Assembly: GCA_002422025.1 (NCBI GenBank)
Contig: DISV01000005.1
Location: 290,948-354,947, forward strand
Direction of reading: 5' to 3'
DNA length: 64,000 nt
Source: Patescibacteria group bacterium UBA6201
GTDB taxonomy: Bacteria > Patescibacteriota > Minisyncoccia > Phycocordibacterales > UBA918
Below the pieces are notes generated by a model, which made no database searches, was not told the origin of the DNA, and saw only the letters and a program-made list of their open reading frames with translations. Below, in pieces: positions 3,313 to 48,966 of the stretch (its first letter is position 1; every line of letters starts with the position of its first letter). Both the position numbers and the translations under genes were made by a program.

Positions 3313-4878
3313 CTAAGCTGCGTAAAACTGTGCATGTGATTCTTTATAGTCTTTAATTGCCTTATTAAGCTGATCTACTACTTCGTCGGTTAATTCACGA
3401 CCCTTCTCAATAGTGATCATCGTTTCCTTTCGGTCACGAGTGACAAAATCAATAAAGCTTTTTTCTATTTCTCGCACCTTCTCTGGAGTGGTACCTTCGA
3501 AGAGTCCGTTATTAGCACCATAGAGTGACACCACCTGTTCATAAAATGGCATCGGGTTACTTTGATTTTGCTTTAAGAGTTCTACATACTTACGACCAGA
3601 ATCAATACGTGACTTAGTGTCCTCATCTAGGTCACTAGCAAACTGCATAAAGGCTTCTAGTTCACGAAACTGTGCAAGTTCCAAGCGAATCTTTCCTGAC
3701 ACTTTCTTCATCGCCTTAGTTTGCGCCGCACTACCCACACGTGACACAGAAATACCGACGTTGAGAGCAGGACGGATACCCTTGTTAAAAAGATCCCCCT
3801 CCAAGAAAATCTGTCCGTCAGTAATAGAAATAACGTTAGTTGGAATATATGCTGAGACGTCACCTTCCTGAGTCTCAATAATTGGCAAGGCAGTTAATGA
3901 ACCTCCTCCAAGTTCTTTTGAGAGTTTGGCACTGCGTTCCAAAAGACGAGAGTGAAGGTAGAAAATATCTCCCGGATAGGCTTCTCGACCTGGTGGACGG
4001 CGGAGCAAGAGTGACATCTGACGATAGGCATTGGCGTGCTTAGAAAGGTCATCGAATACTACGAGAACGTCGCGACCCTGCTGCATAAAGTATTCACCAA
4101 TAGCAGCTCCTGCAAAAGGTGCTAGGAAAAGTAACGGAGAGGCTTCAGAAGCAGAGGTTGCAACAATGATGCTGTATTCCATTGCGCCAGCTGCTTCAAG
4201 CTTGGCCTTAAGGCTCGCGGTCTTTGAGCGTTTTTGTCCAATCGCTACATAAATACAAATTGGACGTTTGTCCTTCGGTTCATATTTCTGGTTAATTATT
4301 GTGTCGATAGCAATAGTCGTCTTACCAGTACCACGATCCCCGATGATGAGTTCACGCTGTCCACGACCGATTGGAATCATCGAGTCAATGGCTTTAATAC
4401 CGGTATGTAGTGGCTCGTTAACCGCGGATCGATCCATTACTCCGTAAGCAACGCGTTCAATCGGCATTTCTTTTTCAGCTTTTATATCTCCAAGCCCATC
4501 AATAGCTACTCCGAGAGGATTAACCACGCGACCGATAATATCTTCGCTTACTGGCACTGATAAAAGACGCCCAGTTTCCTTTACAACCATACCCTCTCGC
4601 ACTCGGCTTGAGTCACCCAAGATTACCGCCTTTACCGAATCCTCCTCTAGGTTGAGTACCAAACCGTAGAGTTCCGAAGTATCTTCGAGCGTATCCTTGA
4701 GGCTTTTACCTCCAGAAACATCAAAGGCCACCATCTCCATCATCTTGGCTCCCAAGAGACCTTCGATTTCCACGATACCATCAGATACCGCCGATACTAA
4801 ACCGACTCTTTCGGTTTTGGTTTCTGTGGAGAGACCAGCTATTTCTTGTTTTAGTTTTTCTACGATATTGGTACTCAT
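3313..4878 (-). CDS. atpA: F1Fo ATP synthase alpha subunit
   Basis: [29 protein letters not shown]. Confidence 0.99.
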
Positions 4879-36530: not shown

Positions 36531-37487
36531 TTATCTTACACCTCTGAAGATTGGGTGGTTGGCACAGAGAGATTTTTTTGCCACCTCAATTACAGTTTCA
36601 GGTGTTGTGGTGGAGAGGTTCGGACGCGATGACAAAACTACGTCGTCATCCTCCACCACCTCCTTGATATCTTCTAATAGATCCAATAATTTCGCTCTAC
36701 GTTCTTCAACCTCCTCCACAAAATTGTTGCGCTCCTCACGCCATTTAGTCACACCTGGTGCATCATCTAGTATCCACGGGAATACTGCGCAAGCTACCAT
36801 TCCATCACGCACATCTTCGGTTGTGGTAGCGACCAACATACGCACCTTACGTCCAGAAAGTAGTAACTCAGAATCTTTTGGACGTAACTCGGTTATGGTG
36901 ATATTCCACTCTTCGTTCTTAACATCAATAAAGCGTACCTGCTCTTGATCTCCATACTCCAATCTTTTAACTGCACCTAACATGCGTCCAGCCAATGGAT
37001 TTTGCCACATTTGTGCCTCAAATTCTGCTCGAGATTGATAGCTTTCTAACTGCTCTCCCATATATTGATCAAGATAGAAGCCTGCTCCAATTGAATGAAG
37101 CATCATCGCACCCACCACACTAAAACCAAAGCTACTGCCAACCACAAGGTATAAAGGATATTTATATCCTCTCTTAGTGTTGCGAAGGTTGAAATAGGCG
37201 ACCAAGGTGAGCGAGCCAAAAGCCAAAAGCCACAGATAGGGCAACGTATCGAGGAAGAAGGTTAAGAAACTTTGGTGGGTCGCCTCGTAAAGCGAGTAGC
37301 CGATATATAGGGAAGTAAAGGATAATATTGCTAAAGCCACAGCTCCCAGAATCACTGACAAGACCCAGGCGGCCCAAAAAGCGTATTCATAAGATAGCCA
37401 ATACAGCCGAGAATGAGGGGTGATTCCCTCCCTTTCCAGACGGTCTAAGACACTCTGCTTTATTTTGTTATTCATAGATTCACTCAT
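36531..37487 (-). CDS. Membrane protein, probable anti-sigma factor
   Basis: Overlaps the stop of the ECF sigma gene; 3 TMs plus an extracellular domain. Confidence 0.6.
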   Translation of the reverse strand: MSESMNNKIKQSVLDRLEREGITPHSRLYWLSYEYAFWAAWVLSVILGAVALAILSFTSLYIGYSLYEATHQSFLTFFLDTLPYLWLLAFGSLTLVAYFNLRNTKRGYKYPLYLVVGSSFGFSVVGAMMLHSIGAGFYLDQYMGEQLESYQSRAEFEAQMWQNPLAGRMLGAVKRLEYGDQEQVRFIDVKNEEWNITITELRPKDSELLLSGRKVRMLVATTTEDVRDGMVACAVFPWILDDAPGVTKWREERNNFVEEVEERRAKLLDLLEDIKEVVEDDDVVLSSRPNLSTTTPETVIEVAKKSLCANHPIFRGVR

Positions 37488-38056
37488 ATATCTAATGACT
37501 CAAGCTTTTGCTTTAATTGCTTCTTAGCGCGGTGTACCAAGGTACCTACCGTACCAGTCGGTACATGAAGGACATCAGAAATATCTTCATACTCAAGATG
37601 TTCAAAGTAACGCAAAATTAGCACTTCACGGTACTTGTCGTCGAGTTGTTCTAGTGCACGCAGGAGTAGTTTATTACTCACCTGTTGGTCAAAAATGGCT
37701 TCCGGATCAACATTATCAGCTGCGATTAACTTCACAATATCATCTCCTTCAGATACAAGATAACCTTCCGGACGTGACTGAAGTTTACGATACCAGCTAA
37801 TAGCTTCGTTGTGCGCAATGCGATATATCCATGCGGAAAAAGAAAGACTTTGGTCGAAGCTGTTTAGATTACGATACACTTTGATAAAAATTTCCTGCAG
37901 CACATCAGCTCTATCGTCTGGATTACGAACACCGAGACGGGTGATGTACCGTTCGAGACGTGCTTCATAACGCTCCACCAGATTCCCAAAAAACGCTCGG
38001 TCGCGTAGCGAATGTGTCACCAGTTCATTGTCGGTTGGGGCCGAAGATTCGGGCAT
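37484..38056 (-). CDS. ECF RNA polymerase sigma factor
   Basis: DVLQEIFIKVY, FSAWIYRIAHN, LRYFEHLEYEDI, GTVGTLVHRAK. Confidence 0.95.
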   Translation of the reverse strand: MPESSAPTDNELVTHSLRDRAFFGNLVERYEARLERYITRLGVRNPDDRADVLQEIFIKVYRNLNSFDQSLSFSAWIYRIAHNEAISWYRKLQSRPEGYLVSEGDDIVKLIAADNVDPEAIFDQQVSNKLLLRALEQLDDKYREVLILRYFEHLEYEDISDVLHVPTGTVGTLVHRAKKQLKQKLESLDI

Positions 38057-41024: not shown

Positions 41025-41705
41025 CTAGTCTCTCTCCTCCCACTCTTTATCTTTTAAATGTCCAAATCCCTTTTCATCACCCATACCTTCATCGTGACCC
41101 CCTCCACGATGTTTGAACTCAAAACCAGATTCAACTCCTGCTTCATCTAATATTTCTCGTACACGCTCGCGGTCCTTATTCTCCATTGCCTCCCGAAGCG
41201 CTTCCTTTTGTTCAGTATTTAGAAGACTCATAAAGTTTGGTCTCATATTGTCTTTGGAATTATCCATTCCAAAACCAGTCAAACCAAGTTCGTCAAAAAT
41301 GTCCTTAGCACCTTCTCTATCGCCGTCCCTCATCAACTCGTAGGCTTCAACTAATCTATCAAACTCTGCTTCACTATCAATCATGTCAGCGAAGGCAGAG
41401 CCCTCAATCGCTTCTTTAAAGGCCTCATAGTCTCGGGTGGCAATGGCGCTATGGATATCATTTTTATGCTCGCGCATGGCTTCACGAACTTGCTTAATAA
41501 CATCTTCGTCGACTCCGGCAGCTAAGAGAACATCTCGTGCAGCCTCTTTATCACCAGATTCTCTTAGTTCCTTAGCAGTCTCGAAGGCGGCAATCTGGTC
41601 ATCATTTAGGCCAGCTCGTTTAAGCATATCGCCACTAAAGGCACTTGCTCCTGTCACCGTGACCGCGAAAGCGGCCAAGGGAATAAGCAGAGTTTTCATA
41701 AGCAT
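41025..41705 (-). CDS. Secreted alpha-helical repeat protein of unknown function
   Basis: Signal peptide; three repeats of the type LRESGDKEAARDVL / MRDGDREGAKDIF / MENKDRERVREIL. Confidence 0.8.
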   Translation of the reverse strand: MLMKTLLIPLAAFAVTVTGASAFSGDMLKRAGLNDDQIAAFETAKELRESGDKEAARDVLLAAGVDEDVIKQVREAMREHKNDIHSAIATRDYEAFKEAIEGSAFADMIDSEAEFDRLVEAYELMRDGDREGAKDIFDELGLTGFGMDNSKDNMRPNFMSLLNTEQKEALREAMENKDRERVREILDEAGVESGFEFKHRGGGHDEGMGDEKGFGHLKDKEWEERD

Positions 41706-41859
41706 AATTTTTTAATACAAATTTAAAGTAAATAAACGTCTTCAAAACGAAGTGTGGTTAAATAAGGAACAGCAAAGCCGCCCGCGAAGGCGGCTTCACT
41801 TTAGGGCCAGTAACATTTCTTTCTGGAACTAACCCTTTATGTACTCCGTTCCATTTTTT

Positions 41860-41887
41860 ATTACGTGGCGGAGTTATAAATATTTCA
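41860..41887 (-). promoter_or_regulatory. Candidate ECF-sigma promoter
   Basis: TGAAAT-N16-CGTAAT, close to the SigW-type consensus TGAAAC-N16-CGTA. Confidence 0.45.
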
Positions 41888-41921
41888 CACTTAATGAACC
41901 TTCAGTTCACTGAGCGAAATA

Positions 41922-42497
41922 CTAATTCGCACCAATCCTTTCATGTAACCAATTCTCAGCCCAATCAGAAAAGTTACCCACGGGTCTTCCACCACCTTCT
42001 AGTTCTGACCAAACCTCTCGTAGCAACACTGCCAGTTCACTACTCTGCCCAAGTGCTGTCTCGCAAGTATCCAAAAGATAAACTGTATTATCAACTGTGA
42101 AGCGATACTCATAATCATACCCGCCCTGAATTGAAGGACAGTCTGGCGCTAAGGGCGCATAAGTATAGGCAACCAATTCATCATCATACTCACGTAAGTC
42201 ACGCATCAGGCCTACTGAGAGCTTACCTTCAATCGGAGATAAAGCTGAGTCACTGTTCCCACCTGGCAGGTATATATAATTTCTGTCTGACAAGACTCTA
42301 AACGACGGTTCTACATAGCGAGAACTGCCGTCACTATAACGCTTCGCGACCAAACTCCACTCACCTGCCTCAGCTTCGGTGTCATTTAAACTGTCCGGCA
42401 CGTAAATAGGTTTAAAAGCCATCAAGTAGACATACATACCGATAGCCAAACCAGTTAGGAAAGTTAGGGAAAGCAACATCCAATCATCGCGTTTCAT
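41922..42497 (-). CDS. Hypothetical membrane-anchored protein
   Basis: N-terminal TM; start MKRDDW follows TATAAT by 7 nt. Confidence 0.7.
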   Translation of the reverse strand: MKRDDWMLLSLTFLTGLAIGMYVYLMAFKPIYVPDSLNDTEAEAGEWSLVAKRYSDGSSRYVEPSFRVLSDRNYIYLPGGNSDSALSPIEGKLSVGLMRDLREYDDELVAYTYAPLAPDCPSIQGGYDYEYRFTVDNTVYLLDTCETALGQSSELAVLLREVWSELEGGGRPVGNFSDWAENWLHERIGAN

Positions 42498-42615
42498 TCT
42501 CTCAATTATACACGGCTCTATCATCAGCTTAAACATAAGAATGGTGAGATCAAATCATTCATCGCTTGTTCCAAGAATTACCTTCAAGCGACTTAGGGCG
42601 TGTTAAAATTTCCAG

Positions 42616-44700
42616 ATGGAGTTATTTTCATATCTTGGATTACACACCGCATACCTCTTTGTGTTTTCTGTTAGTTTAGGTTTAGGTATTGGTACATCTG
42701 TATTGAGTCATAGTCTTTTTTTACTTGCTGCTAAAGACAAAAAAGTGTCACGCGATGAGTTTAAATTACTAAACCTATCACGCAAAGTGAGTTGGGTGGC
42801 AATCCTTATGTATGGTTTCAGCGGTATCGGTCTTTTTACCCTTGCCTACGAATCTATGATTGAGCTTGGAATATTCTATGCCAGCATGACGGTCGCTGTA
42901 ATTCTAGTCACAAATGAAGTGCTGTTTTCGTTTTGGCATTTGCCACGTATACAAAACACCAAAAATGGTGTGGCTGTAGTTGATGCTTTTGTTTTAGTAA
43001 GCGGTGCTGTCTCTGCCGTGTCATGGATATTTTTAATGTTCCACCATGTCATTTATCGAACCGATATTGGATACTTTCCATTCATGACCCTATACACAAT
43101 AGCGGTCATTTTGGCACTACTACTCACTTGGTTTATATTCAGAAATTCCGTACACAAACATGACGGCCTTATACTCAAACGCTCTTTATTGACTGCAGTT
43201 TTGCTAACAATTATTTTTATTGGCGCTTGTTATTCCGATATTAATCTAATAACCAAAACGATTAAGGTTGAGGAAGTGGTGCCTCCAATATCAAGTGATG
43301 CAACATACACTATTGATGATGTGGCCCTCCATAACAATTCTGAGGATTGTTGGCTAATTATAGATAAGAAAGTATTCAATGCCACCGAAGCGTCACGCCT
43401 ACATCCAGCCATGTTCAACTGCGGTGAGGATGTGAGTGAGAACTATCATATAAATCATGGCGAGACTATTCGTGACAAGATGATGAAGTTTTATATAGGA
43501 GAACTTAGTGACGGGAAAGGTATCACAAATGTCGATGTACCATTTACAAAAAACCTTACCCTGGAACCATATCGTGAACTATATGTAGATGAAGGATCCT
43601 GGAATCCACATAACCTGATGTTAGTGGTGGAAAAGGACGCTGAGAAGCTTCTAGCAATTGACGGAACTACACACGAAGTAATTGGACGTGTCCACAATGT
43701 TGGTTTTCAGCCACATACATCAGTCTTTTCTTCAGATGCGAAGTTTATGTACATCATCTCGCGCGATGGTTGGCTAACAAAAATAAGCCTTGAAACACTT
43801 GAACCAATTAAATCAGTGTTGGTAGGTGAGAATTCTCGCGGTACTGCGCTGACCGATAATGACAAATACATTGCGATTGGCAATTACGCACCGGGAAATC
43901 TAGTGATTCTCGATACTGATACGATGGAAATCCTCAAGACTATTGCACTTAATGTCACAATAGATGGTAAAGAGATTGAGTCGCGAGCAGGTGCAGTAGT
44001 CGAAGATGGTAACAGAATTATCGTAGCCTTAAAGGATGCAAATAGCGTATGGGCCATTGATACTGACCAGTCGGATTTTCCAGTCACTGATAAATTTGAA
44101 AACATTGGCGAGAATGTACCTGCACTACATGACGCCTTCCTTACTCCCAATGGAGAATACTACATAGTCGCATCCCAAGGTTCAAAGACTGCCTGGGTAC
44201 TTGATTTAACAACAATGAAACCAATCGCTGAGATAGAGACGGGAGAAACACCTCACACCGGCCCTGGAGCTGCCTGGGGCGACTACATCTACGTTCCAGC
44301 TCTCGGAGAAGGTTTAATAACAGTTATTGATACTAAAACCTGGAAGCCGGCGAAGTACATAAAAACAGGTGGGCCAGGACTATTTGTGCGCAGTTACAGC
44401 AAAGATCCATCGTATCCATATGTCTGGGCCGATACTGCCTTTGGCGATTATAAAGATGAAATATATGTGATTGATGCAAGGATTAACGAAATCGTTGAAA
44501 CAATTGTCCCAGTCGAAGGCGAAAGCTCATGGCACCCTGAATTTACCTACGATGGTAAGTCTGTCTACATCGTTTCTCAAACAGCCAACGAAGTAGAAGT
44601 ATACGATGCCTACACCTTCGAAATAGTTAAAAGAATTGAAGCTAATACTCCATCAGCAATATCTAATGTTGGTCTTCGAATCGAGGAGCCTGGACTCTAA
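42616..44700 (+). CDS. Fusion: multi-TM domain + cytochrome b5-like domain + cytochrome cd1 heme d1 beta-propeller (NirS/NirN-like)
   Basis: YTIDDVALHN..DCWLII..VFN..HP..CG.D..H (b5); GFQPHT, SRDGW, ESRAGA, LHDA, TPHTGPG, GGPGLF, HPEFT, TPSAISNV (d1 domain). Confidence 0.85.
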   Translation: MELFSYLGLHTAYLFVFSVSLGLGIGTSVLSHSLFLLAAKDKKVSRDEFKLLNLSRKVSWVAILMYGFSGIGLFTLAYESMIELGIFYASMTVAVILVTNEVLFSFWHLPRIQNTKNGVAVVDAFVLVSGAVSAVSWIFLMFHHVIYRTDIGYFPFMTLYTIAVILALLLTWFIFRNSVHKHDGLILKRSLLTAVLLTIIFIGACYSDINLITKTIKVEEVVPPISSDATYTIDDVALHNNSEDCWLIIDKKVFNATEASRLHPAMFNCGEDVSENYHINHGETIRDKMMKFYIGELSDGKGITNVDVPFTKNLTLEPYRELYVDEGSWNPHNLMLVVEKDAEKLLAIDGTTHEVIGRVHNVGFQPHTSVFSSDAKFMYIISRDGWLTKISLETLEPIKSVLVGENSRGTALTDNDKYIAIGNYAPGNLVILDTDTMEILKTIALNVTIDGKEIESRAGAVVEDGNRIIVALKDANSVWAIDTDQSDFPVTDKFENIGENVPALHDAFLTPNGEYYIVASQGSKTAWVLDLTTMKPIAEIETGETPHTGPGAAWGDYIYVPALGEGLITVIDTKTWKPAKYIKTGGPGLFVRSYSKDPSYPYVWADTAFGDYKDEIYVIDARINEIVETIVPVEGESSWHPEFTYDGKSVYIVSQTANEVEVYDAYTFEIVKRIEANTPSAISNVGLRIEEPGL

Positions 44701-44710
44701 TTAAATATAT

Positions 44711-45247
44711 TTAAGCTGTTTTAGTTGAAAGAATCCTTACCCCACTAAGGACAAAGGCGATTTCAATGGCACCCACAAGAACCAAGGTGTAAGCAATATC
44801 ACCAAGTAGCATATTCCTCAAAAATGGTAGGCCAAGCTCATAAGCATAGAGGAGTCCAAAAATAGATTTCTCATACCATGGAGAGAACAACCAGACTGCA
44901 GCATTGGTAAACAAAAAGAAGACTAGCGAACTGGCAACAACAGTGACCCCAACCGAAGAGAAGGAGTTATACTTTCGACAAACCCAACTAAGGAAACCAA
45001 TTAGGATAAACGAGCCGTAGACTGAAAGCATTATTCTCCAATCGTAAAACCCTATAAGCAAATCAGACAGTAGGAGGGCCACAAGCGGAAGAATAATTGA
45101 CCACCTTCTTCCGAGATACAAACTACCCACAAACGCTAAGGCGGCAATCGGTGTTGCGTTCGGAGCGTGTGGCATAAGCCTTATCATTATCCCGAAAGAA
45201 ATTAGTGCGCACGCTATTAAAATAATCTGATTTCTATTCAAATTCAT
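44711..45247 (-). CDS. Putative vitamin transporter S-component (DUF6580-like)
   Basis: RLMPHAPNATPIAALA, SDLLIG, FFLFTN..VW, YELGLPF; last gene of the nrdJ-pduO operon. Confidence 0.75.
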   Translation of the reverse strand: MNLNRNQIILIACALISFGIMIRLMPHAPNATPIAALAFVGSLYLGRRWSIILPLVALLLSDLLIGFYDWRIMLSVYGSFILIGFLSWVCRKYNSFSSVGVTVVASSLVFFLFTNAAVWLFSPWYEKSIFGLLYAYELGLPFLRNMLLGDIAYTLVLVGAIEIAFVLSGVRILSTKTA

Positions 45248-45249
45248 AA

Positions 45250-45681
45250 TCAAAATTGTGATTTTTCATAGCGCCATTCTACAGAGTCTCTGTCTTTAAG
45301 CTCTAGTTTATCGGCTCCGACTTGTGGCATAGTGTCGTTAACAAAATACTGCCAATATTTGTCCTCCACTCCATTTACCTTTCCATTTATACCCTCAACC
45401 AATATTCCAAGCCCTGGATACTCTTTGGTGATTAAGAGAAACTCTGGGTCTTCTTGATTTAGTGCCTCTAGAGCATCATAGACAGTATCACCCACTGCTA
45501 CAGTTACTGATTTATTTGTATAAACACCTTCAACACTTAGGGAAATGTTGATGACTTCTTGAACATCTTCAGTCGGTACATTTTGTAGATTGGTCTGTCT
45601 GTCTGTATACGCAGACAGACCAAAGATTAATGCCAATACAACAGTACCTAACCCTAATATTTGCAAGACTTTATTATTCAT
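45250..45681 (-). CDS. DUF4430 / transcobalamin beta-domain-like protein
   Basis: TVYDAL, GILVEGING, YWQYFVN..VGAD..L.D.DSVEWRY. Confidence 0.85.
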   Translation of the reverse strand: MNNKVLQILGLGTVVLALIFGLSAYTDRQTNLQNVPTEDVQEVINISLSVEGVYTNKSVTVAVGDTVYDALEALNQEDPEFLLITKEYPGLGILVEGINGKVNGVEDKYWQYFVNDTMPQVGADKLELKDRDSVEWRYEKSQF

Positions 45682-46226
45682 ACACTTTTTAAATTATCTT
45701 TATACGAAGGCGATAGTTCTCTTATATTCTTCCTGACCGCTACATATCGTGCAAGTACGTATAGAAGACTTGAGAGTCGATTGAGATACGCTAGAGTCTC
45801 GGGCGACACTGCCCTATCTGACAAAGCAGCGATGACTGTACGCTCTGCTCGACGCGACACTGCTCTAGCAAAATCAAATAGTGCTGAGTGTTCTGTCACC
45901 CCTGGTACCACAAAGGAATGAGGGTTTGTTATTTCACTCTCAAAATCTTCAATCGTCTGTTCAAGACTGTCTATATGACTTTGTTCAAGTGTTTCGGTGA
46001 CTCCCGCCAACTCTGCCTGCACAATAAAAAGACTTTCTTGCGCCTTTAGTATCTCATTACTAATTCGTTTGTCTTTTTTAGCAAAACGAGCCCTGCAAAT
46101 ACCGAGTAATGAGTTGAGCTCATCAACCGTACCAAGTGCTTCAAAGACAAGACTATCTTTAGATAAACGCTCTTTAGTCCCAAAGAGTCCTGAAGTGCCA
46201 CCATCCCCTTTACGCGTATATAGCAT
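45678..46226 (-). CDS. pduO: ATP:cob(I)alamin adenosyltransferase, PduO type
   Basis: YTRKGDGGTS, GTVDELNS, RAVSRRAER, YLNRLSS. Confidence 0.93.
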   Translation of the reverse strand: MLYTRKGDGGTSGLFGTKERLSKDSLVFEALGTVDELNSLLGICRARFAKKDKRISNEILKAQESLFIVQAELAGVTETLEQSHIDSLEQTIEDFESEITNPHSFVVPGVTEHSALFDFARAVSRRAERTVIAALSDRAVSPETLAYLNRLSSLLYVLARYVAVRKNIRELSPSYKDNLKSV

Positions 46227-46231
46227 AGAAT

Positions 46232-48556
46232 TTACGCAGTAGTTACATCAGAGGGTACCAACATATCAATATCACAAGTACCACCCACACAAGCCAACTC
46301 CTTCTTCTGCTCCGTCTCATCAGTATGCTCATAGGTGACCAACTTTGAGTAGTCGATTGAAGGAAAGCCAGCTAATAGTTCATCATATCGTTTTTTATCA
46401 ATTGTCTCATAAGGAGCCAGACGGTAAACATGATCAAAGCGTGGCAAGAATGATAAACCGCCGATAATACTCCAATTTTTCTGCACCCAATCTACAACAC
46501 TAATCCACTCATTTTCGCCGACTGATATCGTGGCCGATGGATTATGTTCCGTATAGTTAAGCTTTACTGTCTTCCAATATTCTAATTGTTCCAGTGCAGA
46601 AAAATCATCTTTAAAAACAGAATCACTTGGTGCCTCGACTGGAAACTCCAAAACATAAGTACTAGCGCTTTCGAGAGATTGCCCAACTTCAGGGTAGTAT
46701 GGTACGCCTTGGTCCTTCAACATCTTGAAGAGTGAGTCAGTGGCAGAGATTCGGACACGACGGATATAGTATTTTGAGTGACGAGGATGTATACCAGAGG
46801 AACAATTGAAGGTTTGTGACACAGTACCAGACGGTTTAACTGCTGTTACTGATAGTGATTGCTTTATTCCTAGTCGTTTGGCGTACAGAGCGTTTGTCTC
46901 TATTGCCATATCACGCATCGCACGTAAAGTTTCTGGTTCGCGCGCAACGTCACTATCCCACTGACCAGTCACTGAAACACCAAGCAAATGCTCATCTTCA
47001 CAATGCTTCTGCCAGTCTTTCGAGATGTAGTTAAATTTCGTCAAGGAAGATTGATAAGTTCCAAGGAGAGAAGCAAGACGCGCCTTACGCACCAAACTCT
47101 CTTTAGTGTCATCCGCTCGCGCTATAACTTCAGAGAGGTTACAAAATTGTTTTGATTGGAGGATTATCTCTCCACACGGATTCGTACCAATTGGACCCTC
47201 TACTACCCCATCTTCTCCTAGGAAGCCTACCTTCTTAAAATACTTAGCACGACGCTCCGGTAAAGTGTTGGCCAATGCTCCACGGTTAAATATACCTCTC
47301 TCTCCTGACCCACTTTTCATAAGTGCCACCCACTCTTCCATTAATTCCGTATTTGATGGAGTTGTTTCGTATACGGCAGAGTTATTAGCAACTGACCGAT
47401 GTGGTTCTGTTAAATAAAACTGTCCCTTTTTAGCATCACGTAGGTCAGCGTCATCAAGATCAGACAGACTTATCATTGCGGTCCGACGTACTCCTCCTGA
47501 GACCACACACTCACCAATCTTGCAGATAATATCGTGAACATCGAGTGGTCTCAGGCGACGACCTTGTCGTTTCTGTATCTTTTCTTTAGCAAAATCCAGT
47601 AGCGAACGTAGTGGCTCAGGACCAGAGGCTTTGCCACCCATAGTCATCAAGCGGGCACCCGCTGGCCGAATAAGAGAGTAATCAAACTGAATATCCTCTC
47701 CGGCATACCAAGTCTTTAGCCCTAAAGTGAGCGCATCACACCACCCTTCTTTAGAATCTTTAACTCTGTGTGTGGGCTTCACTTTTTTAGTTAGTTTTTT
47801 AATCTGTGGCATCTGCTCAACATTCTGACTCTCAACAGAAAATCCGACACCACACCCTTGCATTGAGAGGTACATAATTTCGGCATAATCTTCAAGTGAA
47901 GCTGGAGCAATAAATGTGCAGTTATATGCACAGGTGTTGCAACGGCGAGCTGGGTCACCAGCAAATTGCATCAGTCTCATAGAAGGCATCACTTCTTGCT
48001 TAAGAATTGCTTCACGAAGTTCAGAATACTCCTCTTGTGAGAGCTTATTGCCAAGATTTTCTCTCATAAATGAAATATAACGATCAACCGTCTCAATCCA
48101 TGTCTCACGTCGATTTTCCTCCTCAATCCATCGTGCGTAGGTCCTCAGATATACGAATTCGCCAAGAGCATTATCTTTAAAATACTTTTTGCTTTTTTCC
48201 GCCAGGACCCGCACATGTTCTGGCACCTCACCTCTTTCCAAGCGTCTCTCTGTTCGCTCCGCTCGGTAGAGGATGTATGATTTGGCAGATTCAAGGAACC
48301 CCAAAAGCATAAGTTCTTTTTCCACCTCATCTTGCACCTCCTCAACAGTGGGAGTAAATGCTGAATTAGTTTTTTTATTTGCCGCCAACTTCTTTTCTAC
48401 TGCATTAGCAACCATCTTTGCTGCTCCATCACTAAATTCTCCAACGGCCTTCATTGCTTTGTTTACAGCAACGATAATTTTGTTTTTATCAAAATCAACG
48501 GACGAACCGTCTCGTTTAATGATGGTAGTTAGCAATGGTGATTTGGTTTTTGGCAT
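46232..48556 (-). CDS. nrdJ: Class II (AdoCbl-dependent) ribonucleotide reductase with N-terminal ATP cone
   Basis: IIKRDG ATP cone, VMPSMR, YNC, VVSGGVRR, TNPCGEI, KPSGT, C-terminal CVGGTC; pduO adjacent and no nrdB in the window. Confidence 0.9.
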   Translation of the reverse strand: MPKTKSPLLTTIIKRDGSSVDFDKNKIIVAVNKAMKAVGEFSDGAAKMVANAVEKKLAANKKTNSAFTPTVEEVQDEVEKELMLLGFLESAKSYILYRAERTERRLERGEVPEHVRVLAEKSKKYFKDNALGEFVYLRTYARWIEEENRRETWIETVDRYISFMRENLGNKLSQEEYSELREAILKQEVMPSMRLMQFAGDPARRCNTCAYNCTFIAPASLEDYAEIMYLSMQGCGVGFSVESQNVEQMPQIKKLTKKVKPTHRVKDSKEGWCDALTLGLKTWYAGEDIQFDYSLIRPAGARLMTMGGKASGPEPLRSLLDFAKEKIQKRQGRRLRPLDVHDIICKIGECVVSGGVRRTAMISLSDLDDADLRDAKKGQFYLTEPHRSVANNSAVYETTPSNTELMEEWVALMKSGSGERGIFNRGALANTLPERRAKYFKKVGFLGEDGVVEGPIGTNPCGEIILQSKQFCNLSEVIARADDTKESLVRKARLASLLGTYQSSLTKFNYISKDWQKHCEDEHLLGVSVTGQWDSDVAREPETLRAMRDMAIETNALYAKRLGIKQSLSVTAVKPSGTVSQTFNCSSGIHPRHSKYYIRRVRISATDSLFKMLKDQGVPYYPEVGQSLESASTYVLEFPVEAPSDSVFKDDFSALEQLEYWKTVKLNYTEHNPSATISVGENEWISVVDWVQKNWSIIGGLSFLPRFDHVYRLAPYETIDKKRYDELLAGFPSIDYSKLVTYEHTDETEQKKELACVGGTCDIDMLVPSDVTTA

Positions 48557-48966
48557 AGTCGGCAAAGATTACATAGATAATGGTCTATCTATAGTAATAT
48601 AGATAATTATCTATGTATAAGAAAATGATGTGGAGAAGAGATACGGACACGAAAGATAGGCCCTGACAAGTACACATTGCCCCACCTAGTTGAAGAGACT
48701 AGTTAAGATAGGGCATTTTTTTCCAAATTGACCTAGTTTATTGCCACACCTGCGTTGGTATTCAACATACATATACGTTATGATAACGACCGCATACGGA
48801 GGGTTCGCATAGTGGATGAGTAGCAAAACATTTTGCTACTCATCCGGTCCCGAGTGAAGCGAGGGATTGTCCGATGTTTTAGACGAGGACAAAGGTGGAC
48901 TAGTGCTAGGCATTTCTATCACTTAGTTTGTAACTGGACCGAGAAGTCATTAAACTAGGAATTTAC

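Follow-up and report, generated by a model that had tools for sequence, protein, structure and literature searches.

A conserved, undescribed cd1-family protein of Patescibacteria that joins a membrane domain, cytochrome b5 and a NirS-like propeller pocket

The window analysed here is a 64,000-nucleotide (nt) stretch of contig DISV01000005.1 (positions 290,948 to 354,947) from the Patescibacteria group bacterium UBA6201, whose genome of 716 kb is 99.3% complete. It carries a gene for a protein of 694 amino acids (aa), called here the b5-propeller protein, in which a membrane domain, a cytochrome b5 domain and a cd1-type propeller follow one another in a frame free of internal stops (Table 1). 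A first-pass annotation made from the letters of the window had proposed such a fusion in a probable member of the Candidate Phyla Radiation (CPR), and both the architecture and the host were borne out, the latter also by a same-genus orthologue in Candidatus Nomurabacteria. The protein is a real, conserved and undescribed variant of the cd1 family which by membership is neither NirS, NirN nor NirF; to judge from its residues it most likely works like NirS, with NirS-like chemistry, while belonging to a separate clade.

Searches against Pfam matched the propeller to Cytochrom_D1 with an E value of 2.1e-69 (aa 329-685) and the central domain to Cyt-b5 (PF00173; aa 233-297, E 2.4e-7, 31.1 bits against a cut-off of 23.7), and the AlphaFold2 model, with a mean predicted local distance difference test (pLDDT) score of 82.8, contained six long helices at aa 9-206, a b5 fold and a beta-propeller. 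The alternating membrane loops hold 7, 0, 2, 1 and 4 Lys/Arg residues, and by the positive-inside rule the b5 and propeller domains are predicted to lie outside the cell, in agreement with relatives that have a signal peptide or a single N-terminal anchor. His10, His143 and His144 fall on the predicted outer face of the membrane domain, while Cys245, Cys269 and His278 are invariant in the b5 domain, where a Cys245-Cys269 disulfide is possible. Comparison with the same-genus orthologue gave a nonsynonymous rate (dN) of 0.02-0.09 against a synonymous rate (dS) of about 1.0, rates that indicate purifying selection, and the C-terminal domains are more conserved in sequence than the membrane domain. 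A recent transfer, as judged by base composition, was rejected, the third-position GC content (GC3) of 0.36 falling inside the genome's range. The extended -10-like box before the gene is likely its own, leaderless promoter: a TANNNT motif ends 5-7 nt upstream of the start in 16 of 21 homologous loci, compared with 5% of random positions, and the spacing in the window supports the start codon and suggests a leaderless transcript. A two-hexamer scan did not pick up this box, and the sigma-70 and terminator scan gave results at chance level.

Table 1. Features of the b5-propeller gene and its adjoining operon in the window (window coordinates).
Feature	Position	Strand	Description
b5-propeller gene	42616..44700	+	Open reading frame, 694 aa, membrane-b5-cd1-type propeller protein
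Extended -10-like box TG-n-TAAAAT	42601..42609	+	6 nt between box end and ATG; likely promoter
Six-helix membrane domain, aa 9-206	42640..43233	+	Weakly DUF2269/DUF2214/CopD-like
Cytochrome b5 domain, aa 230-298	43303..43509	+	His263 and His281 predicted heme ligands
Eight-bladed cd1-type propeller, aa 329-685	43600..44670	+	His367 proximal; His505 and His547 distal
C-terminal GLRIEEPGL	44671..44697	+	Arg-x4-Gly-hydrophobic end, length equal to that of NirF
Convergent operon	44711..48565	-	Class II (B12) ribonucleotide reductase, cobalamin adenosyltransferase, DUF4430, DUF6580
DUF6580 protein	44711-45253	-	With DUF4430, likely B12 capture and uptake
DUF4430 protein	45250-45681	-	With DUF6580, likely B12 capture and uptake
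Cobalamin adenosyltransferase	45678-46226	-
Class II (B12) ribonucleotide reductase (nrdJ)	46232-48565	-
Two perfect ATAGA-N6-TCTAT palindromes	48573-48588, 48599-48614		Upstream of nrdJ

The five histidines singled out in the first-pass annotation are conserved family-wide, His263, His281, His367 and His505 in all 120 aligned members and His547 in each of the 118 members covering that position; His640 is likewise present in 117/117. His367 aligns with the axial His of NirS, and His505 and His547 with its two distal His. The absence of CXXCH extends to all 121 family proteins, and the above-threshold b5 match with both ligands invariant agrees with the proposal that b5 stands in the place of heme c. 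Around the predicted tetrapyrrole site, Lys340, Arg383, Arg408, Tyr424 and Arg457 are invariant in 74/74 aligned members, as are Arg688, Gly693 and Leu694. Lys340, Arg383 and Arg408 match residues by which d1-type hemes are gripped at their oxo groups and ring A/B acetates, a correspondence that favours an isobacteriochlorin; heme b might be held flipped, with its propionates at the same three residues. The His505 column has His only in NirS, Tyr in NirF (PyD) and Asp in NirN (LDD), and the supplement of Pold et al. (2024) gives LHD as diagnostic motif VI of NirS. The b5-propeller protein has this motif and lacks motif I, that of heme c, and its motif VII reads PHTGPG throughout the b5 clade, with no Pro at the third position, and PHPGPG in a cupredoxin-fused sister group. 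The loop with the essential Lys235 of NirF (Tyr234/Lys235) is absent. Ser683 occupies the position of the distal Tyr of NirN. His640, in the HPEFT motif that had been read as a sign of NirN or NirF affinity, is not diagnostic, since it is common to NirN, NirF and also the NirS of Thermus and Azospirillum.

A homologue search returned 204 proteins, of which 120, among the matches listed, have identities of 46-100%; the listed homologues whose names include a taxon are from Patescibacteria. In a set of 156 family proteins the architectures were membrane-b5-propeller (98), membrane-b5-b5-propeller (39), b5-propeller (12) and propeller alone (7, a class that includes fragments). In the first b5 of several tandem forms (P0079, P0085, P0095, P0107, P0120 and P0122) Tyr occupies the position of the first His and the second His is missing; this b5 may thus be a degenerate or Tyr-ligated heme domain. 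The gene is accessory, being found in 4/36 other genomes of the genus and in 3/400 of the class, and the non-CPR copies, from one Limnocylindria and one Acidimicrobiaceae genome, are nested among CPR sequences. Across relatives, the slot N-terminal to the propeller is filled by b5, a cupredoxin, a multicopper oxidase or cytochrome c, so the exchange of heme c for b5 is part of a general pattern. The suggestion that b5 serves to avoid cytochrome c maturation fits these genomes, with maturation genes in 0 of the 5 carriers tested, and loses force as a general explanation with relatives that use the other three input domains. The same type of propeller occurs in a two-domain multicopper oxidase (P0137), in a secreted, immunoglobulin-domain-containing protein with b5 (P0132) and fused to tandem cupredoxins (P0189), and a distant protein, P0199, acquired a b5 fusion independently. 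Databases name the family genes YncE, YVTN, NirF or hypothetical, and for this reason surveys of nirS miss or mislabel them. An unannotated, frameshifted haloarchaeal gene for a cd1-type propeller with LHD and HPEF motifs lies on a Natrinema plasmid (L045:10001-11112).

By similarity, the closest solved relatives are NirN, NirF and NirS, in that order, both by structure with Foldseek (E 2e-30, 3e-27 and 1e-24) and by sequence with phmmer (4e-54, 7e-44 and 2e-19), a YVTN propeller (2e-18) and a YVTN surface protein (6e-9) coming after them. The phylogeny proposed as a check was computed and gave another placement. Four trees of 125, 73, 38 and 41 propellers recovered the b5 clade with support of 100/99-100; its sister is a cupredoxin- or multicopper-fused group that includes a Heimdallarchaeota protein, and NirF is the joint sister of both, with support of 96/97 under LG+G4 and 99/99 under LG+C20+F+G4. 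NirF itself forms its own clade (100/100), and the b5-propeller protein lies outside it. Approximately unbiased (AU) tests rejected a grouping with canonical NirS (p-AU 0.0105) and with NirN (p-AU 0.037), so that neither the NirS membership nor the closeness to NirN of the first-pass annotation was upheld; NirN as the closest kin, first by score, was rejected on the evidence of the trees. These tests are supporting and not final, because the groups were named after the first tree had been seen and the NirF stem is long. Independently of the trees, the b5-propeller protein and NirF have in common a C-terminus of equal length, Arg-x4-Gly-hydrophobic-stop.

These trees have no root, and they disagree with those of Pold et al., where NirF and NirN are the outgroups; the b5-propeller clade may overlap some divergent clades of that work (PMC10999283), which were not individually matched to the present trees. 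The NirS, NirN and NirF references were drawn from annotated plasmids. From the propeller alignment, 44 of 150 representatives were left out as too partial or too long, the first tree dropped seven further rows as too gappy, and degenerate NirN-like rows were excluded from the 73-, 38- and 41-row trees. Most other branches carry LHD, PH and HPEF, which makes a NirS-type pocket the probable ancestral state, probably lost separately in NirF and in NirN. The position of the clade beside NirF bears on the origin of the d1 biosynthesis enzymes from a reductase. A deep-branching NirF adjoining nirJ (L131:2918-4105) scored 222 bits against the b5-propeller protein and 290 against Pseudomonas NirF. 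A metagenome scan aimed at the cupredoxin-fused sister clade yielded 40 loci, mostly of cytochrome c-type relatives, and the gene context of that clade rests on one locus, L095.

Set beside the known systems, the protein shares with NirS (P. aeruginosa 1NIR, P. pantotrophus 1QKS) the eight-bladed d1 propeller, the axial and both distal His, LHD, equivalents of Arg216, Arg243 and Tyr263, and an N-terminal electron-transfer heme domain; it differs in the b5 that replaces heme c, the added six-helix membrane domain, PHTGPG, Pro in place of Arg372/391, the C-terminus, the separate clade and carriers without detected d1 biosynthesis. NirF (P. aeruginosa 6TV2), the nearest characterised clade, has equivalents of its His48, His238, His325, Arg65, Asp185 and Arg372 as well as the matching C-terminus, whereas the b5-propeller protein has LHD for PyD, Arg408 for Ile90, Gln655 for Arg340 and fused b5 and membrane domains, and it was never found with nirJ. 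NirN, the dihydro-heme d1 dehydrogenase (P. aeruginosa 6RTD), offers the same carrier-plus-propeller plan and the HxEF His, but differs by Asp for His505, Tyr for Ser683 and the possession of heme c. The Chloroflexi C1-C2-NirS and the heme-c-less cytochrome d proteins of Halobacteriota resemble it in LHD, PHxG(P)G, HPEF and swapped input domains, some lying beside nirK; unlike it, these non-canonical NirS-like proteins stand outside the NirF-adjacent clade, have a cytochrome c or cupredoxin input and possess neither a membrane bundle nor, except for the independent fusion in P0199, a b5. The literature searched, which left out most subscription papers, yielded no account of this clade or of any b5-cd1 fusion; the sources used for comparison were PMC10999283, PMC8756737, PMC10548856, PMC12569097, PMC11052009, PMC6054029, PMC13168839, bioRxiv 2020.02.12.945543 and bioRxiv 2020.01.13.904656.

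The membrane domain has stand-alone relatives (144 hits) that are common in Patescibacteria and keep His14 and Lys87 invariant. Their family matches all lie under the cut-off (DUF2269 2e-4, DUF2214 1.5e-3, CopD 1e-2), and the window's own domain matched no DUF2269, DUF2214, CopD or HemJ-like profile; the His/Lys pair may liken the domain to HemJ, for which no confirmation in print was found. Among 137 fused copies, 16 retain the His/Lys pair and lack His143/His144, 116, including that of the window, show Phe or Tyr at the pair, without the Lys, together with His10 and His144, and five are incomplete in this domain. Such an exclusive exchange suggests that a metal or heme site was kept with new ligands, and it may have been a single event in one lineage. 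An AlphaFold model of the ancestral membrane domain (pLDDT 93) resembled nothing more specific than generic four-helix bundles (Z up to 12.6), with no Foldseek match below 1e-3 and no sequence match in the PDB; in the ESM Atlas the domain had matches under 0.9, without families. An unfused counterpart, a single-anchor b5 gene followed by a DUF2214-like membrane gene, is present elsewhere in this genome (C4:7548-8465) and at L015:962-1905; because these neighbours occur separately there, membrane-plus-b5 looks like a general Patescibacteria module.

As the first-pass annotation had expected, no cytochrome c maturation, heme synthesis or nir biosynthesis genes were found in this genome. The searches gave no match to NirD, NirL, NirG, NirH, NirJ, NirE, HemC, HemD, HemN, SirB, NorB, NorC, NosZ, NapC or NirK, and no family match to COX1, ALAD, ferrochelatase, CcsA, UbiA or ferric reductase. 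Among the carrier genomes, many of them incomplete, HemC was found in 0/32 and NirJ over its cut-off in 0/30, the NirJ control set being without any positive, and the carriers are apparently auxotrophic for heme. The current view is that cd1 nitrite reductase cannot do without heme d1 and that Patescibacteria possess hardly any heme redox chemistry. With a conserved, predicted heme enzyme in cells without detected heme synthesis, the questions are whether a cd1 propeller can work with heme b, and whether these symbionts take heme from their hosts.

The best explanation, to which a probability of about 0.4 is given, is an outward-facing heme enzyme that reduces nitrite to nitric oxide (NO). Electrons would pass from the membrane bundle, which likely binds heme or metal, to the predicted b5 heme and on to the predicted propeller heme, which, five-coordinate and outside the cell, would reduce nitrite to NO. 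The cofactors would be scavenged, as no synthesis genes were found, and heme b, heme d1 or another isobacteriochlorin are the predicted candidates for the active site. Heme binding, topology, the direction of electron flow and the substrate are what we infer from the features above. Nitrite reduction is the most likely function because the NirS-type His pair is invariant, the catalytic residues of NirF and NirN are absent, the input domains are interchangeable and the context is linked to nitrite.

Several observations weigh against it. Motif VII is PHTGPG instead of PHPG, Pro550 stands at the position of NirS Arg372, which binds a heme d1 carboxylate, and the tree rejects placement of the propeller with NirS. 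No supply of heme d1 was detected in the carriers, and heme d1 is reported to favour nitrite binding and NO release while porphyrin does not, so an enzyme with heme b could suffer product inhibition. Neither NO reductase nor heme-copper oxidase was found in this genome, and NO would therefore endanger the cell's own radical enzymes; a quinone prenyltransferase was not found either. In addition, nirK is missing from this genome and no operator precedes its b5-propeller gene. Elsewhere, nirK and nirS were reported together in only 5.3% of assemblies, so the 39% co-occurrence with nirK among carriers of the b5-propeller gene may point to a complementary role and not to one shared reaction.

This figure stands for 11 nirK-positive genomes among 28 Patescibacteria carriers, compared with 35 among 401 genomes of the class, an enrichment of about five-fold, with nirK inside the fetched flanks of 7/28; the six flanking NirK copies scanned all exceed the TIGR02376 cut-off. 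The nirK gene lies co-directionally behind the b5-propeller gene at L020, L022, L035, L036 and L037, in the operon-like order arsR, b5-propeller gene, nirK at L035 and L037 and as gene then nirK at L036. No nirK was found in 17/28 carriers, this genome included, and 34 of the 35 nirK-positive class genomes are without the gene, and NirK was rejected as an obligate partner on these grounds. Ribonucleotide reductase genes lie inside the fetched flanks of 8/28 carriers (six times class II, twice class Ia), the background being 45 of 777 open reading frames (5.8%) of this genome within 8 kb of one. The convergent B12 operon of the window recurs at L016 and L018; a dedicated B12 role was rejected as a general explanation, as class Ia and III reductases carry the same operator, described below. 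Naive Fisher values of 3e-5 (nirK) and 3e-13 (ArsR) overstate these associations because kin and mobile islands are not independent, and the counts omit G470 (a duplicate of G238), G476 (a 1.9-Mb bin with TGA-recoded COX1) and the non-CPR G480 and G481. A mention of nirK and nirS enrichment in Saccharimonadia is made in PMC12577380, and what handles nitrite and NO in Patescibacteria with nirK and without NO reductase is a question that the family raises. More distant propellers of the LHD/PHPG/HPEF type occur with nirK, nosZ and a heme-copper superfamily gene at L099 and beside nirK at L124.

A five-cysteine ArsR regulator was found in 10/28 Patescibacteria carriers against 0/400 other genomes. 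The palindrome ATAGA-N6-TCTAT, counted 12 times in 329 kb of locus sequence and 0.4 times in shuffled controls, is mostly paired, precedes arsR, class Ia, II and III reductases and a PNPOx-like gene, and is likely the operator of this ArsR. A perfect copy lies 48 nt upstream of the b5-propeller start in 4/22 upstream regions (L026, L029, L030 and L031), another in a shared divergent promoter at L022, and at L035-L037 the gene directly follows arsR, so that ArsR would regulate it in other genomes. Counting against such control, ArsR was found in only one of the four genomes with the -48 palindrome, and the two perfect copies of the window, the sole ones in this genome, precede nrdJ, the b5-propeller gene having none. 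In the region C1:3083-10674 of this genome a five-cysteine ArsR (4193-4519) comes with two operators that are near-perfect and with divergent genes of PNPOx-like and rhodanese-like type; a nitroreductase-like gene and a class Ia reductase, its beta subunit bearing an ATP-cone, are also there, and the genome thus owns two reductase classes. At L089:8187-14948 (G472) the ArsR gene diverges from the pair of class III reductase and activase, after which come genes resembling cysteine desulfurase, NifU and FNR; nirK stands behind ArsR, with a heavy-metal P-type ATPase alongside. In Pseudomonas, as PMC4860495 states, the denitrification regulators Anr and Dnr induce class II ribonucleotide reductase, which by analogy may be a parallel to this regulon. 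A broader picture, though a doubtful one, would be a fourth cd1-propeller branch, sister to NirF and with the two-His site of the probable ancestor, working without heme d1: in heme-auxotrophic Patescibacteria, a single-chain wire from membrane to surface with stolen heme b that removes NO or nitrite, the five-cysteine ArsR coupling the gene and NirK to the cell's ribonucleotide reductase; if true, it would tie DNA-precursor synthesis to nitrogen-oxide stress.

Among the alternatives to nitrite reduction, one that is on the whole unlikely follows close behind: a propeller with scavenged heme b would remove NO or O2, b5 re-reducing the iron, as an NO dioxygenase, O2 reductase or hydroxylamine reductase that would shield ribonucleotide reductase and, where a cell has no NO reductase, complement NirK. 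Precedents are that cd1 reduces O2 and hydroxylamine and that globins carry out b5-supported NO dioxygenation. It stands so near because of the missing heme d1, the weaker release of NO by porphyrins, the missing NO reductase, the nirK co-occurrence and the tie to radical enzymes, the last seen both in the flanking reductases and in the operator before all three of their classes. Heme b would be needed for the b5 domain anyway, and an FNR-type flavoprotein, whose best match, below cut-off, is the flavohemoglobin reductase domain, adjoins the gene at L021 and L025. Against this sink stand the carriers without nirK and the nirK genomes without the gene, the co-occurrence counts inflated by kin and mobile islands, and Lys340, Arg383 and Arg408, which match binders of acetates and oxo groups that heme b lacks.

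The placement beside NirF invites another explanation, which is improbable: processing or capture of a tetrapyrrole in the manner of NirF or NirN, with host or environmental heme, siroheme or a corrinoid as substrate and b5 as electron acceptor, comparable to NirC-NirF. The C-terminal length and Arg, and His640 at the position of NirF His325, speak for it, as do the apparent heme auxotrophy, the B12 uptake operon converging on the gene in the window, L016 and L018, and the precedent of NirF, reported to oxidise a d1 precursor together with the cytochrome NirC. However, His505 is kept here and lost in both known modifying enzymes, the Lys235 loop of NirF and the Tyr of NirN are absent, the link reaches B12-independent class Ia and III reductases, and a heme transporter is not among the recurring neighbours. 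Being related to NirF does not imply sharing its function, since LHD is found on most branches and is probably ancestral.

It is very unlikely that the protein is an electron wire or docking partner feeding NirK, with the propeller heme as a relay. The gene orders at L035-L037 and the lack of cytochrome c maturation genes in the carriers tested would suit such a wire, but most carriers have no nirK, most nirK genomes have no b5-propeller gene, the distal pocket is invariant as expected of catalysis, and stand-alone b5 proteins, present in many relatives, could be the carriers. That the protein is a generic surface propeller of the YVTN/YncE kind, with no heme site, as suggested by weak YVTN, YncE and PQQ-repeat matches and by the source names, is scarcely credible, given the Cytochrom_D1 match, NirN and NirF matches 30-45 orders of magnitude above YVTN, pocket residues that are all invariant and C-terminal domains more conserved than the membrane domain.

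Gene neighbourhoods differ between carriers, and in many of them the gene stands alone, inserted among housekeeping genes, in some cases close to a serine recombinase. Such a recombinase adjoins the gene at L017 and L026, and recombinases occur also at L021 and L032; L017 has similar sequence on both flanks, which suggests a mobile cassette. On the other side of the gene in the window, two family-less exported or membrane proteins of 226 and 204 aa are encoded divergently on the minus strand (41025-42536) and are syntenic at L016, and farther away a sigma-factor-like gene with a membrane partner lies on the same strand (36531-38056).

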